A DNA stretch of 5,296 nucleotides from a virus. Lineage: Duplodnaviria; Heunggongvirae; Uroviricota; Caudoviricetes. Below the pieces are notes generated by a model. That model did no database searches and was not told the DNA's origin. It saw only the letters and a list, made by a program, of their open reading frames with translations. Positions 89 through 4,865 of the stretch are shown one piece after another. Location: the IMG/VR virus record IMGVR_UViG_2713896773_000013. One strand, given 5' to 3'. A program made the translations under genes and the position numbers. Numbering within the stretch: position 1 is the stretch's first letter; each line of letters starts with the position of its first letter.

Positions 89-2566
89 TCAGTCGTAAGC
101 AACCCGGCGCTTACGGGCAAGAATAGCTTCCAGCGCTCTTTCAATCTCAGGAATGGACAGCTTAAGCGCATTCGCTACATCCGGTGCTGGTGACTTGTTC
201 TTGCCATCAATATAGATATGGTTAATGACGTTAATCCCTGCACCTGCCGGTGAATGTGAATCCCGGCCTCTGGATAAGGTAAGGTCGCCGCGCATATAGC
301 GCTCTAATACGGGTGGTACTTTCGGTACATCCGGCACCATCATATCAGCCAGCCGCGAGGAGGCTTTTAGCGCCAGCGATGCAGACTGACCGATACCAAT
401 CGCCGCCCCTTCTGCGATGTTTGAACCGAAGCCCATAAAGACCCGGCTTGGCGAGTGAATCCCCAGCTTTTCCTTGAACCACCCGCCGACGCTATCGCCC
501 ATCTCGGTAACGGTATTCTTGAGCGACTCCCACTTATTTTTGATACCGTTCACCAGTCCGTCAATCAGGTGACCGCCAAACTCGGTAAACTGGCCGGGAA
601 GGTCGATGTTAAACCACTTCATGACCCCCGCAAACGCCTTGTAGAACAGCCCCAGCGGCGACCAGTTCAGGATTAGCTTACTGACACCAAGAACCCCGCC
701 GTTAAAGGCTGTTTTCACTTCCTCCCACCGCTGCGAGAACCATCGGCTTATCGCGCCCCAGTTGCGGTAAATCAGGTACGCGCCCCCGGCGATGATGGTT
801 ATCGCAATGCCTATGGGGTTCATTAACAGCGCCCTGCCAAACCAGAGGAAAGCCTTTGCCACCACCATTACGCCTCTGAACAGTCCACCCGCCAGCGCTT
901 TACCCAGCATTCCGGCTCCTTTCGCCACGGTACTGAATCCGGTCGCCAGCCAGCGCAGCTTGCCGCCGTCGCTGAGGGCTGTTTTGAGTAACAGCCAGTT
1001 AGTGCGCAGCAGTACGACGTTTTTCCACAACCCGGCGAACGGAGATACCAGCAGGTTAAGACCGAGTTTCAAGCCGACAGTGGCGATTTTCAGCCCCAGC
1101 AATGCGCCCACTGTTTTTGCCACGCCCTGAACAATGCCGGGATGTTGCGCTATCCATTGCCCGGTGGAATGAATCAGCGGAATCAGTTGCTGCGTCATTG
1201 ACACGAACGAGGGAGACAGTTGACTGCCAAGGGTAATGGACAGTTCGCGGGTGCTGACCATCAGTGCTTTGGTCGCCTCCAGCGGCGATTTCAGTCGCTC
1301 CGTGTAGGAGGAGGCCAGCAGGTCTTTATCCGCCGCCTTAAGTGCGCCAGCCCTGATTTCGCGGTATTTGTCCATGTTGGCGAGCATCGGACGGACAAAC
1401 GCCATGACCTGCATATCGGCGAACATCTCACCCAGACCGAAATTCTTTGCCAGTTCCTGTAACGCAAGGTCGCGGGAGTTATCGTCCTTGATTTTCATTG
1501 CTTTCTTGAAGCCTGCCAGTGCTTCCGGGCTTTTGGCCTCCAGATACCTGCCCATGACGCTTATCATGCCCTCAATGGGCGAGACGCCAGCAGATTTATA
1601 AGCCATGAGTGACCCCTGAAGGTCAATCCCGATATCGGCAAACTGTTTCTGCGTGTCGCGGGCAAAAATCTTGGTGAGGAAGTTACGGAAGTTGTTACCA
1701 GCCTCGTCAGATGACCCGGCACCAATTCGGGCAATCTGTAAACTCGCTCCGATTTCCGCCATCGCTTCTTTACCTTCGGCAATACCGCGCATCATCGGGG
1801 CAAGAGATGGCATCCATTTCACCTGGTCAGGTATTTCAAAAGACCCCTGGTCGCCTGCAAAGGCCATGATGTTCTGTACTTTGGCAAACTCTTTAGCGCT
1901 GCCATCCATCGAGTTTTTCCAGACGGCGGCAACCTTCGCCCATTCCGTCCCTGTGGTGCGTGTGGCAGTAGCGGCGCGGGCTATATTGGGCATGAAGCTG
2001 CCAATTTCGGACACACTGTCGATATTGTCACTGATAAGCGAGCCTACGGCGTCCTGTAAGTCGCTCTGGTACTGGTTGTACTTGAGCGACCATCCCCGGA
2101 TTTGCTGCCCCAGACTGGCGCGGGTTTTATCGTCATATTTCGCCGTGATCGACATATCAATCATCTTGTCGTCGAACGTAGCCGACTGCTGAATCGCCGG
2201 GGAAACGAGGCTGTAAGCGGCTTTGGCCTGCGCCCACGTCTCAATTCCCTGTCCATAAAGCGCCATCCGGTTAGCTCTCAGGGCATCGGTTGTGGCAGAC
2301 GCTGCCGACAGGCGGGACTGCTGGCGGTTTAGTTGCTCCAGCGTTCTGCCTACCCGTTGCAGGTCATTGTTCAGGCGTGAGGCCACGCCTGAACCTACCT
2401 GACCGTAACGCTGCATGGCGCGTGACAGGCTGCTTTGTTGCTCGGTCAGGCGGCGTGACGTGTCGCCGAGAGAATCAAGCGCCCGCCGTGTGCCGCTGAC
2501 GGCGGAACGGAAGCTGCTCCCGACAATACCGCCAATCATCACACCAACAGAAAAATTATTGCTCAT
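89..2566 (-). CDS. Phage tail tape-measure protein (myovirus P2 gpT / Mu gp42-like class), 825 aa
   Basis: Uninterrupted 825-codon ORF. ATG at 2566-2564 preceded by GGAG about 7 nt upstream. N-terminus of TMP type (FSVGVMIGGIVGSSF followed by a Q/R/S-rich coiled-coil region). Central Gly/Ala/Leu-rich hydrophobic segments typical of TMPs (for example GALLGLKIATVGLKLGLNLL and NPIGIAITIIAGGAYLIY). GIHSPSRVF-type motif near the C-terminus. Length is in the range of P2 gpT (815 aa) and lambda gpH (853 aa). Confidence 0.85.
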   Translation of the reverse strand: MSNNFSVGVMIGGIVGSSFRSAVSGTRRALDSLGDTSRRLTEQQSSLSRAMQRYGQVGSGVASRLNNDLQRVGRTLEQLNRQQSRLSAASATTDALRANRMALYGQGIETWAQAKAAYSLVSPAIQQSATFDDKMIDMSITAKYDDKTRASLGQQIRGWSLKYNQYQSDLQDAVGSLISDNIDSVSEIGSFMPNIARAATATRTTGTEWAKVAAVWKNSMDGSAKEFAKVQNIMAFAGDQGSFEIPDQVKWMPSLAPMMRGIAEGKEAMAEIGASLQIARIGAGSSDEAGNNFRNFLTKIFARDTQKQFADIGIDLQGSLMAYKSAGVSPIEGMISVMGRYLEAKSPEALAGFKKAMKIKDDNSRDLALQELAKNFGLGEMFADMQVMAFVRPMLANMDKYREIRAGALKAADKDLLASSYTERLKSPLEATKALMVSTRELSITLGSQLSPSFVSMTQQLIPLIHSTGQWIAQHPGIVQGVAKTVGALLGLKIATVGLKLGLNLLVSPFAGLWKNVVLLRTNWLLLKTALSDGGKLRWLATGFSTVAKGAGMLGKALAGGLFRGVMVVAKAFLWFGRALLMNPIGIAITIIAGGAYLIYRNWGAISRWFSQRWEEVKTAFNGGVLGVSKLILNWSPLGLFYKAFAGVMKWFNIDLPGQFTEFGGHLIDGLVNGIKNKWESLKNTVTEMGDSVGGWFKEKLGIHSPSRVFMGFGSNIAEGAAIGIGQSASLALKASSRLADMMVPDVPKVPPVLERYMRGDLTLSRGRDSHSPAGAGINVINHIYIDGKNKSPAPDVANALKLSIPEIERALEAILARKRRVAYD

Positions 2567-2597
2567 GGTTCACTCCGGTTGAGTGGTTCGGTGGGCG

Positions 2598-3191
2598 TCA
2601 TTCAGTCAGGGACAGGCCGCTGATTCCGGTAATCCCGGCAATTTCTTCGCTGACGGCTGCCAGTTCACTTTCAAGCCCGGTGCGTTCGCTGACCAGTGCC
2701 GCCACGGTCTTACGGCGCTCTGCCAGTGAGGGAAGTTTGTCATTACCCCACGTCACGCTCTTATCCTTCTTAAGCGCTTCGGTCAGTCGGGTGGCGACCA
2801 CATCCGGGAAGAAAAAGCAGAGCTTGCGCATTACCGCCATCCCGGTATCAGCCGGGGGGACGTTTCCTCCCAGCCCCACCAGACGGAACAGACCGGAAAT
2901 ATCGCCGTTCTCATTTTCCAGATTGCCCCAGCGTTCGGCGTTCCCTTCACCGCCGGAACCGTTGCAAAGAGCACGCTTGAATGACTGATATTCTTCCTGC
3001 CCGAATCGCTCAATATATTCAGGAATAAAGGAACAGTAATCATTAAGTGATAACGGCATATCCTGTAATGCGGTTATTTCGCCATTAATATCACCAATGC
3101 GACGAGAGAGCTTTTCTTTCTGCTCATTCAGGGAGGTAAGGTTATTTTTAACGGCGTTCAGTGCTTCAATGAGGGAAATAACAGGTTTCAT
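2598..3191 (-). CDS. Hypothetical coiled-coil protein, 197 aa (function unknown; sits where a TMP chaperone would normally be, but does not look like one)
   Basis: ORF with ATG at 3191-3189 and GGAG about 10 nt upstream. Stop is 31 nt upstream of the TMP start; start is 1 nt after the stop of the preceding gene. N-terminal heptad-like segment (LIEALNAVKNNLTSLNEQKEKLSRRIGDINGEITALQD), central Gly-rich region, C-terminal predicted helix (LAERRKTVAALVSERTGLESELAAVSEEIAG). I recognise no family. Confidence 0.6.
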   Translation of the reverse strand: MKPVISLIEALNAVKNNLTSLNEQKEKLSRRIGDINGEITALQDMPLSLNDYCSFIPEYIERFGQEEYQSFKRALCNGSGGEGNAERWGNLENENGDISGLFRLVGLGGNVPPADTGMAVMRKLCFFFPDVVATRLTEALKKDKSVTWGNDKLPSLAERRKTVAALVSERTGLESELAAVSEEIAGITGISGLSLTE

Positions 3192-3192
3192 T

Positions 3193-3807
3193 TTAATAAC
3201 TCCAGATAAAAGGTGTAGTGAGGGTGAGCGCTTCGGAATAGGAGACGTTGCAGGCTTCGCTTACATCCTTTATTAAAAGGTGCTGCGCTGCCCTCTGGCT
3301 GTCGGCTATGCCGTCGAGCTCTGAGAAATAAACGTGTGATTCATTGTGACCAAAACAAACCGGGTAAGCGCTTTCCATAAACTCCACCTGCTCAAGCCCC
3401 TTTACGGCTGGCGGCTGTGCGCCGAGAAAACCAATATGGCGAAGATACCAGGCACCAGTTCCGGCCGGGTTACGCGCTTCTCCCGGCCTGTAGAAAGCGG
3501 CAGACACTTTTTTATATAGACCTGACTGAACCATATCCAGCAACCTGTTATCAGGCTTAACCAGCGCGAAAAGTCTGCCGTTTTTACTTATCAGTCCGGT
3601 GGTTTCACCATAGGCGGGACTGTTACTGGCCGGATGCCCCAGGCACAGCGGCGCACCATAACCCGCGCGATGATAGCCGTTATAGGCTGCTGCCATGTTG
3701 TCGATATCCTCGTCGGAAAAGCTGATTTCCTGCCCCGCCATCGCGGTATGTGTTCCCGCCCGGAATATCTCAATAGTTTTCCAGTTACCAATATTGATAT
3801 CTGTCAT
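3193..3807 (-). CDS. Hypothetical protein, 204 aa, N-terminal half resembling the phage P2 GpO prohead serine-protease domain (MEROPS S73-like); C-terminal 60 aa unrelated
   Basis: ORF with ATG at 3807-3805 and AGGGA about 12 nt upstream, 1 nt after the stop of the Mor-like gene. By-eye alignment to remembered P2 gpO: FRAG...GQEIS..DEDIDNMAAAY versus FRIG...GRVIS..AQDIQEMAETF; CLGH versus INLEH (candidate catalytic His); GRLFALVKPDN..LYKKVS versus GKWALFAKITP..AQKVYTS (candidate catalytic Ser); WYLRHIGFLGAQPPAVKGLEQVEF versus YLVGLAVTDDPASLGTEMLEF. Not verified by any search. Confidence 0.5.
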   Translation of the reverse strand: MTDINIGNWKTIEIFRAGTHTAMAGQEISFSDEDIDNMAAAYNGYHRAGYGAPLCLGHPASNSPAYGETTGLISKNGRLFALVKPDNRLLDMVQSGLYKKVSAAFYRPGEARNPAGTGAWYLRHIGFLGAQPPAVKGLEQVEFMESAYPVCFGHNESHVYFSELDGIADSQRAAQHLLIKDVSEACNVSYSEALTLTTPFIWSY

Positions 3808-3808
3808 T

Positions 3809-4336
3809 TTATATTTGTCCCTGTTTCATATCGCGGCACTCTTTGTTTTTCTTACGCTCGGCGGCAATAATCTGATAAATCCACTGAATAGAATTGCCAT
3901 ATTTCCTGGCTAATTCCCGATGAGTCATCCCTTGTTTGTAATCGGAAAATATCCTGGCATTTCTGTCGAAAGAGTTTCTGGCTGCGCCATTAGGTATATA
4001 GAAATTGTTACCTTTAAAGACCCTTCTAAGGTGTTCTGTAATTTCCGGGGAAATGATTTCGGCCTGAGCCGAAAAGCAATGTATTGTAAGCAAAGCCTGC
4101 GCTATCACACCTGTAAGCTCATGCAGAAAAGATGTTGCTTTAGGGGCGTCTTCACATTCTATTGGCATGTAATTCTGGCAACCACCAAGATTATCAGATA
4201 TATGCAAAACAATTTTATTTGCTGCACTACTTGCCTGAAGTTGTGAATAGCCCGCATCAGTCAGAAAATCTTCAATCGCATCCCCCATTTCCCCCAGAGT
4301 GTCAGATGTTGCGTACAATCCCTCTCTTGTAATCAT
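3809..4336 (-). CDS. Mor/C-family (phage Mu late-gene activator-like) transcriptional regulator with an N-terminal extension, about 175 aa
   Basis: C-terminal region KGNNFYIPNGAARNSFDRNARIFSDYKQGMTHRELARKYGNSIQWIYQIIAAERKK matches the Mor-family signature (GG.Q.YIP....R..RN..I...F.G.....LA..YG.......Y..I) ending in an HTH. Start placed at ATG 4336-4334, which has GAGG 7 nt upstream; the ORF track's in-frame GTG at 4342 has only 1-nt spacing. The gene is clearly AT-richer than the downstream genes. Confidence 0.65.
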   Translation of the reverse strand: MITREGLYATSDTLGEMGDAIEDFLTDAGYSQLQASSAANKIVLHISDNLGGCQNYMPIECEDAPKATSFLHELTGVIAQALLTIHCFSAQAEIISPEITEHLRRVFKGNNFYIPNGAARNSFDRNARIFSDYKQGMTHRELARKYGNSIQWIYQIIAAERKKNKECRDMKQGQI

Positions 4337-4344
4337 AATCACAC

Positions 4345-4393
4345 CTCGGTAATGATAAAGATGTGCGCTAAAAAGGCTTTATAAAGCTTTATG
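4345..4393 (-). promoter_or_regulatory. Candidate activator-dependent promoter with dyad-symmetric operator upstream of the Mor-like gene
   Basis: Minus-strand TATCAT (+ strand 4352-4357) is a 5/6 match to the -10 consensus, with no convincing -35 hexamer. Two overlapping perfect 12-bp palindromes, GCTTTATAAAGC (4376-4387) and ATAAAGCTTTAT (4381-4392), containing TAAAGC direct repeats at 10-bp spacing, are centred roughly 37-42 bp upstream of the predicted start site. Confidence 0.35.
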
Positions 4394-4537
4394 AGGCGTC
4401 TTTCTGGTGACAAATCAGCACATACACCATTAACGCTTTAAAATGGCTTACAGGCTTTTTTAGCGCGGGTTACTAATGTGGATTAAGAATATGGTTTTGG
4501 GGCGGGGATGTTTTTTAATGTACTTTAGATATGAAGA

Positions 4538-4574: not shown

Positions 4575-4865
4575 TTATTGAGGTCGTCTGTCTTTCCTCA
4601 ATCCATCAAGTAGCGCCATGGCATCAGTAACCAGTATGCCAGCAGCATCCGTAACCATCGAAACATCAGAGGATGCACATGATTTATCCATACCTAATGT
4701 TGACGCAAAATCAAGTAGCTTACGAACTGCGTCAAGTCGATAGGTGGCAGAGTCGTAAATTAACTCCTGATTAGCATCAGTCTTTAAAAACATAATATCA
4801 TCAGAGGCACCTTGTGAAAATGACGGCATCGCACGGAAAGTATTTTGAGTTTCAGCCTGTTTCAT
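4575..4865 (-). CDS. Hypothetical protein, 96 aa (unknown function)
   Basis: ORF with ATG at 4865-4863 and GGAGGG about 9 nt upstream. Its start overlaps the stop of the upstream ORF in an ATGA arrangement (4862-4865). AT-rich composition. No recognisable motif. Confidence 0.5.
   Translation of the reverse strand: MKQAETQNTFRAMPSFSQGASDDIMFLKTDANQELIYDSATYRLDAVRKLLDFASTLGMDKSCASSDVSMVTDAAGILVTDAMALLDGLRKDRRPQ

Follow-up and report, generated by a model that had tools for sequence, protein, structure and literature searches.

The Mor/C activators constitute a small, structurally unusual protein family that is known almost entirely from bacteriophage Mu. C-type late promoters of Mu carry a dyad centred at -43.5, a -10 hexamer and a poor or absent -35 hexamer; the Pmom box ATTAT-GCCCCA-ATAAC was verified in the Mu sequence to be centred at -43.5 with respect to its -10 TAAGAT. 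The Mu promoter Pm was reconstructed from the Mu genome, with the dyad AGTAA-AGCCGG-TTAAT at -51 to -36, the -10 TATCCT at -13 to -8 and the +1 at Mu position 9224, and this numbering reproduces the published -57G and -54A, the -51 to -36 dyad and the G/C-rich hexanucleotide spacer. Here we compare these promoters with the region upstream of a Mor-like gene in a 5,296-nucleotide stretch of Caudoviricetes DNA (IMG/VR record IMGVR_UViG_2713896773_000013), which in its full length is called the window and which is one arm of a small, non-autonomous Mu-type transposable island; all genes of interest are on the minus strand. The first-pass annotation of positions 4345-4393 had taken two overlapping palindromes for the activator site of a promoter of this gene. 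We infer from sequence comparison that the Mor-like operon is mainly transcribed from a Mu Pm-type promoter, P_A, located about 135 bp upstream of the palindromes. The palindromes themselves overlie a real, sharply bounded, sequence-specific element, termed Block B.

The two perfect palindromes were borne out at 4376-4387 and 4381-4392, and are the sole perfect 12-bp palindromes of the window. Their count is unremarkable in 1000 first-order Markov simulations of the window (mean 1.46, P(>=2) 0.43), and an overlapping pair appeared in 0.8% of these simulations. The strongest evidence that Block B is more than a product of chance is its conservation across the 17 distinct versions collected of the sequence preceding the Mor-like gene, which include type 1 (the type of the window), with a Mor protein of 175 amino acids (aa), and type 2 (e.g., E. 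coli MS 115-1, L013), with one of 110-116 aa. The features concerned are the following.
4376-4387, plus-strand reading: palindrome 1, GCTTTATAAAGC, perfect in the window
4381-4392, plus-strand reading: palindrome 2, ATAAAGCTTTAT, perfect in the window and kept in all type-1 relatives
4391-4378, minus strand: Block B core, 5'-TAAAGCTTTATAAA-3', a 14-mer of three abutting pentamers, TAAAG / CTTTA / TAAA(G)
4374-4370, minus strand: T-run after Block B, TTTTT, of variable length in relatives (TTTTTT, TTTATG, TTTTC, TTTCC)
All 14 columns of the 14-mer are invariant, and the same alignment has 16 of 76 invariant columns upstream of it and 6 of 20 downstream. It is this 14-mer that is under constraint and not the symmetry of either 12-bp palindrome: most type-1 relatives have GCTTTATAAAGG in place of palindrome 1 and relative L129 has GCTTTATAAAAC, and the divergent type 2 has GTAAAGCTTTAT in place of palindrome 2.

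Relatives of the island were found in 33 of 5426 complete E. coli genomes as well as in Intestinirhabdus, Hafnia, Citrobacter and metagenomes, and a near-identity search of the whole window against GenBank phages gave no match. Carriers among E. coli include AW1.7, MS 115-1 and ST131 strains such as ZH063. Type-1 and type-2 Mor proteins are 32% identical, against 90% for the protein of the next gene, so that, within a conserved island, the Mor gene together with most of its leader behaves like a cassette that was swapped or is very old. The leaders of the two types are unalignable except for just two identical intergenic stretches: Block A, which consists of a terminator-like hairpin (4558-4537) and TTCATATCTAAAGTACATTAAAAAACATCC, and the Block B stretch TAAAGCTTTATAAAGCCTTT, in which the palindromes lie. 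A 21-bp block, TAAAGCTTTATAAAGCCTTTT, is retained in the E. coli MS 115-1 type. The distance from the centre of Mor box 1, the putative activator site of P_A, to the centre of Block B measures 137 or 135 bp depending on the type (~13 helical turns), and that from the centre of Mor box 1 to the ATG is 185.5 bp in both. Block B occurs as a single copy per island; a search of the islands for further copies with up to 4 mismatches at a plausible regulatory position found none, a recurring 3-mismatch match falling within a HicB coding region, and distant searches with Block B and Block A against phages returned chance matches only (E >= 2). The exact 17-mer TAAAGCTTTATAAAGCC has 36 matches in viral contigs, five of them island copies; the remainder, in an unrelated low-GC phage family or inside coding regions, were set aside as chance or unrelated. 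In that low-GC (~35%) family of contigs (L014, L015, L017, L019 and ~25 others) the 17-mer lies within a conserved region of AAAGTTT-like repeats and is followed by CAACTGGTTAAT.

The candidate promoter P_A and its immediate surroundings comprise four features.
4529-4514, minus strand: Mor box 1, TCTAAAGTACATTAAA (TCTAA-AGTACA-TTAAA), a 16-bp imperfect dyad at predicted -51 to -36
4491-4486, minus strand: -10 hexamer of P_A, TATTCT, at -13 to -8, with the predicted +1 at 4477-4479
4487-4472, minus strand: second Mor-type dyad (box 2), CTTAATCCACATTAGT, overlapping the predicted +1 of P_A
4558-4537, minus strand: terminator-like hairpin AAGCCCCTC-CTCT-GAGGGGCTT at the end of the upstream operon, -16.1 kcal/mol
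Mor box 1 is symmetric at 12 of its 16 positions and invariant in all relatives, and the -10 hexamer varies to TATTAT in type 2 and to TACTAT in L129. No -35 hexamer was found at P_A, where the region reads AAACAT. With a start near 4478 the dyad is centred at -43.5, which together with the -10 and the missing -35 gives the make-up of a Mor/C promoter. Like Mu Pm, P_A has a 16-bp imperfect dyad of the form nnTAA-N6-TTAnn (TCTAAAGTACATTAAA versus AGTAAAGCCGGTTAAT in Mu), a spacing of 31 nt from TAAAG to the TAT..T hexamer (TATTCT versus TATCCT; the gap from Mor box 1 to TATTCT is 22 nt), no -35 and a location directly after a terminator hairpin; this geometry is identical in all relatives and at the second island promoter described below. 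The gene that P_A would control is the Mor homologue itself, whereas Mu mor is transcribed from the early promoter. What holds of the first-pass annotation is that the sequence upstream of the Mor gene contains a promoter of the Mu type, with a -10 and a dyad centred at -43.5 and lacking a -35; it misplaced this promoter, which is located at 4529-4486 and not at the palindrome. The hairpin stem next to Mor box 1, GCCCCTC/GAGGGGC, is invariant in 17 of 17 relatives and the 4-nt loop and the upstream gene vary; the stem shows no covariation, which is unusual for a simple terminator.

A scan of 36.7 kb of Mu for Pm-type sites, defined as TAA-N6-TTA followed by a -10-like hexamer at an offset of 35-37, returned Pm together with two further sites. 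Applied to the complete islands, it gave the same two positions in every one, upstream of Mor at Block A and upstream of the Gp27-like gene, with one extra site in L010. The islands therefore appear to have two Pm-type promoters with the common box TAAAG-YRCA-TTARA.
L013 ~17365-17324, minus strand (L007 3242; L001 17928; L010 1818), outside the window: second Pm-type promoter, P_gp27, before the Gp27-like gene
P_gp27 is formed by the box ATTAAAGCGCATTARA and, 22 nt on, the hexamer AATCAT or AATGAT. Box 2 at the predicted start of P_A is the second-best match in the window to a weight matrix of the Mor box; type 2 has a different sequence at this position, ATTAACTGACTTTAAC, of the same TAA-N6-TTA form, and box 2 may be an autoregulatory site.

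The promoter proposed at the palindromes has a different geometry, for which the positions of the hexamer and of the translation signals are required.
4357-4352, minus strand: proposed -10 hexamer TATCAT (variants TATCGT and TACCGT; TGACAT/GACATT and TGATAT/GATATT in type 2)
4347-4342 and 4336-4334, minus strand: Shine-Dalgarno GAGGTG and start codon ATG of the Mor-like gene
With a +1 at 4345, 7 nt past TATCAT, the palindromes are centred at -36.5 and -41.5 as had been stated, and the claimed lack of a -35 is confirmed by the best candidate, AAAGCC at 17-bp spacing, which matches at 1 of 6 positions, and by a consensus scan without a sigma-70 site in 4343-4536. A dyad near -43 was not recovered. 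The spacing from TAAAG to the hexamer is 29 nt in type 1 and 30 nt in type 2, against 31 nt in Mu Pm, P_A and P_gp27, so that the 16-mer in Pm register is centred at -40.5 and -41.5, respectively, rather than at -43.5. In this register (CATAA-AGCTTT-ATAAA) Block B shares TAAAG with Pm and does not share the TTA arm; in the alternative dyad TCATA-AAGCTT-TATAA the arms match at 4 of 5 positions, the spacer has 2 of 6 G/C and the pentamers TAAAG/CTTTA abut, unlike TAA-N6-TTA. The palindrome resembles Mu Pm in the TAAAG pentamer, the subsequent T-run and the TATC.T hexamer only, and differs from it by its abutting half-sites, an AT-rich instead of a G/C-rich spacer and a hexamer that is nearer by 2 nt (type 1) or 1 nt (type 2). 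Compared with the C-type promoters of Mu, the proximal arm ATAAA of Block B is similar to the ATAA(C/T) ends of C boxes, but the element is a direct repeat, ATAA-N6-ATAA, instead of the inverted repeat TTAT-N6-ATAA, and is 20-21 nt from the hexamer instead of 23 nt. Further copies of the palindrome, which the first-pass annotation suggested looking for upstream of late genes, are absent from the islands.

Our preferred reading, possible though short of probable, is that Block B is a double-stranded DNA operator in the transcribed leader, at about +88 to +101, which gates the Mor-like operon. Under this reading the operon would be activated primarily at Mor box 1 of P_A, with a start near 4478, and the operator would consist of the three abutting TAAAG/CTTTA pentamers, TAAAG being also the promoter-distal arm of the Mor boxes. 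A protein of the Mor/C family would bind Block B, either the one of the island or that of a helper Mu-like phage, the choice between them being speculative, and would gate the operon in a step that follows activation at Mor box 1 or is independent of it. The likeliest mode would be a feedback brake, by a roadblock or by a loop to Mor box 1 some 13 helical turns away, although the sign of the effect is speculative. This interpretation is consistent with the sharp constraint, in which 14 of 14 core bases are kept while the flanks vary, even next to a Mor protein that is 32% identical, and with the TAAAG and subsequent T-run that Block B shares with Mu Pm (GTAAAGCC...GCTTTTTTT). In all of the predicted RNA folds some of the invariant bases stay single-stranded, namely the first TAAA of type 1 and the AA separating the helices. 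The invariance of such bases, the symmetry of the sequence and the preserved spacing in leaders that cannot be aligned make recognition of duplex DNA by an oligomer the best-supported mode. Several points weigh against the operator. The Mor-box matrix ranks Block B 16th and 56th of 10,562 positions, only one half-site being shared, and the half-sites are spaced by 0 bp versus 2 bp between the pentamers of the Mor boxes, so that one dimer may not suit both. A second copy that would define a regulon is absent from the islands and, beyond chance, from the phage collections, and to our knowledge a roadblock by a small activator is not an established mode of Mor/C proteins. Finally, the bases of Block B can pair with an upstream segment in a long hairpin, with some covariation in type 1; a role at the RNA level could coexist with one at the DNA level, and the two are not mutually exclusive.

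That hairpin is the basis of an alternative, which we regard as doubtful, in which Block B acts in the transcript of P_A as the 3' strand of the basal helix of a hairpin of ~100 nt, followed by a U-run, and would attenuate, process or translationally gate the Mor operon.
4466-4365, minus strand: predicted leader hairpin of ~100 nt, with a basal helix of 4466-4446 and 4387-4365; minimum free energy -30.3 kcal/mol, z = -3.4
If transcription begins near 4478, the leader would be ~142 nt long. Its hairpin segments are more stable than shuffled sequences in three unrelated versions (z -3.4 in the window, -3.2 in L001 and -2.3 in L013), although the boundaries were picked after viewing the fold, which inflates these scores, and whole leaders give z -2.0 and -0.5. 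The type-1 alignment has 36 predicted pairs, 3 of them with a compensatory change, and 97.0% of its cells are paired versus 95.6% in shuffles, 2 of 500 of which attain that share (2-5 of 500 over the observed values); type 2, by contrast, has 0 compensatory and 5 broken pairs in 4 sequences. In both leader types Block B faces a UGUAA-GC segment and the Shine-Dalgarno is sequestered in a second hairpin. Judged by energy, the sense strand out-folds the antisense strand in 6 of 7 sequences, and judged by z-score in 5 of 7, but in the window itself, if not in most relatives, the antisense strand folds better (4361-4466, plus strand, -39.1 kcal/mol, z = -6.0). The unpaired bases among the invariant ones count against an RNA helix as well, and a search at a permissive threshold found no relevant Rfam match. 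The Mu terminator at Pm has a folding energy of -12.2 kcal/mol and the hairpin at 4558-4537 one of -16.1, against -2.0 to -5.1 for the local hairpin at Block B; no stable G+C-rich hairpin directly precedes the U-run, where only the long irregular one is found, and the terminator scan was silent. As a self-sufficient terminator Block B is ruled out because its local hairpin is too weak, and the leader RNA structure is suggestive but not established. Further downstream, a small hairpin is predicted at 4341-4364, in which ACAUCUU (4364-4358) pairs with the Shine-Dalgarno region (4347-4341) and TATCAT lies in the loop; a counterpart is predicted in the unrelated type-2 leader.

The reading of the first-pass annotation, in which the palindrome is a Mor/C-type activator site of a secondary promoter with the -10 TATCAT and a +1 near 4345, autoregulated or controlled by a related activator of a helper, appears unlikely from these comparisons. 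It would account for the absence of a -35 and for the likeness of TAAAG, the T-run and TATC(A/C)T to TAAAGCC...TTTTTTT...TATCCT of Mu Pm; an A at position 2 and a T at position 6 of the hexamer are possible in 17 of 17 relatives (TATCAT, TATCGT, TACCGT, and GACATT/GATATT with a 1-nt shift), the recognition helix of the island Mor resembles that of Mu C, and the arms ATAAC and ATAAT in the C boxes of Pmom and Plys are similar to the promoter-proximal arm ATAAA of Block B. Opposed to these are the spacing of 29/30 instead of 31 nt, the poor score with the Mor-box matrix, the lack of another copy ahead of any other gene, a gapless alignment in which 2 of the 6 hexamer columns are invariant, and a start that falls inside the Shine-Dalgarno GAGGTG, leaving a leader of ~9 nt before the ATG at 4336. 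We consider it very unlikely that TATAAA (4383-4378), which lies at the palindrome centre and has the same reading on either strand, serves as the -10 of an ordinary internal promoter yielding a Mor leader of ~35 nt or an antisense RNA. The hexamer is invariant and has 5 of the 6 bases of TATAAT, and transcription beginning near 4371 would yield a leader of normal length that includes the Shine-Dalgarno; yet the conserved final T of the -10 consensus is missing, no -35 stands at a distance of 16-18 bp (the window has CAGAAA there and type 2 GTCAGT) and a TG extension is lacking, for which reasons it was judged unlikely as an ordinary promoter. It was also not reported by the promoter scan, and a -10 alone leaves 14 contiguous invariant bases unexplained. 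It is highly improbable that Block B has no function and is an AT-rich palindrome that arose by chance and was kept through recombination or a recent common origin. By chance alone the window is indeed expected to hold one or two 12-bp palindromes, and the 17-mer has exact matches in unrelated viral contigs, but an isolated block of identity between otherwise unalignable leaders, ahead of Mor proteins that are 32% identical, and the rarity of the overlapping pair in the simulations speak against it.

The Mor-like gene downstream of these elements had been assigned correctly.
4336-3809, minus strand: Mor-family activator gene, 175 aa (Pfam PF08765, E 1.7e-25; phrog_532, late transcriptional activator)
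It is the first gene of an operon and is followed by genes for proteins of 204 aa and 197 aa and for a tape-measure protein (825 aa), with gaps of 1, 1 and 31 nt; the 204-aa protein matches the N-terminal part of the Mu gpI-type head protease (phrog_976). Upstream are open reading frames (ORFs) of 137+ aa and 96 aa, which end at 4575 and are followed by a gap of 232 bp. A 13-codon leader ORF (ATG 4430 to TAA 4389) was discarded as not conserved, its ATG being CTG in most relatives. Homologues of the Mor-like protein have 175 aa, and its recognition helix, SIQWIYQIIA, is closer to that of Mu C (SQPQIYQIIA) than to that of Mu Mor. In the 175-aa protein the N-terminal (dimerisation) region seems to be present twice through an internal duplication, residues 1-68 of the 116-aa type-2 protein aligning to its residues 1-63 as well as to its residues 66-125. 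The six proteins had no match among the PADLOC defence models.

Our comparison also delimited the island to which the window belongs.
1-60 of the window: island terminus, TGATCCACCGCGCGATAAATAAGCCGCAATCCGTGAGATAAATGG..., base 1 being the island/host junction in five relatives
L007 2679-10346; L013 16802-24416; L001 (reverse complement) 11819-19627: complete islands
Complete islands are ~7.7 kb long, begin with TGATTAGACGTGAGATAAAT and end with GCGCGGTGGATCA, and have TG...CA ends in which GAGATAAAT/GCGATAAAT motifs recur. Each of the three complete islands lies between 6-bp target duplications (CATAGC, ATGAGT or TTCACT), and their insertion sites are unrelated (hya operon, sbmC-dacD and ynbC). 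They are devoid of transposase and integrase genes, and their only head or tail genes are the tape-measure gene and a truncated gpI-like gene. The set of Mor-like, 204-aa gpI-protease-like, 197-aa and tape-measure genes (window 89-3807 and Mor) keeps its lengths across genera. A search of viral contigs with the island terminus for a helper phage returned island copies only. In a Hafnia paralvei element (L005) the same arm adjoins Mu-type c, ner, A and B genes, and Salmonella and metagenomic mini-elements (L125-L128) carry c, ner, A, B, GemA, Mor and Gam along with the same pair of ~200-aa proteins and no structural genes; scans of two of them (L125 and L127, Salmonella and others) for Mor-type and C-type boxes gave nothing informative. 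In E. coli of the ST131 type (L002/L003) a truncated island copy stands beside tRNA-Ser between clpA and infA, without the tape-measure gene and carrying IS5; such a clpA-infA copy is present in 23 of the 33 element-bearing E. coli genomes.

These gene sets and mini-elements could be satellites of transposable phages, and a literature search for Mu-type satellites found no description of them. A described parallel is the phage satellite P4, whose late promoters Psid and PLL are activated by P2 Ogr or by P4 Delta. The likeness to P4 lies in a small mobile island that has dyad promoters for a phage-type late activator along with its own homologue of that activator; P4 differs in that Ogr and Delta are zinc-finger proteins which act at TGT-N12-ACA at -55, and in its integrase-based integration, the island instead having TG...CA ends and 6-bp target duplications. 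Taken as a whole, the proposal that this is a previously undescribed island family, maybe of transposable-phage satellites, whose two Pm-type promoters sense the Mor of a helper and whose palindrome is an island-specific switch, thrown by a C-like activator of the island itself or by a factor of the helper to commit the island to expression, seems to us quite unlikely.

With respect to the Mor/C family, what the sequences newly provide is two candidate Pm-type promoters with a clear box consensus, a Mor homologue under a Pm-type promoter, which is a potential feedback loop, and a perfectly conserved extra leader element without counterpart in Mu. In either case the promoter assignment of the Mor-like operon is corrected. 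Should Block B turn out to be a second class of Mor/C site or a switch in the leader RNA, it would reveal how the response of a mobile island to a transposable helper phage is timed.

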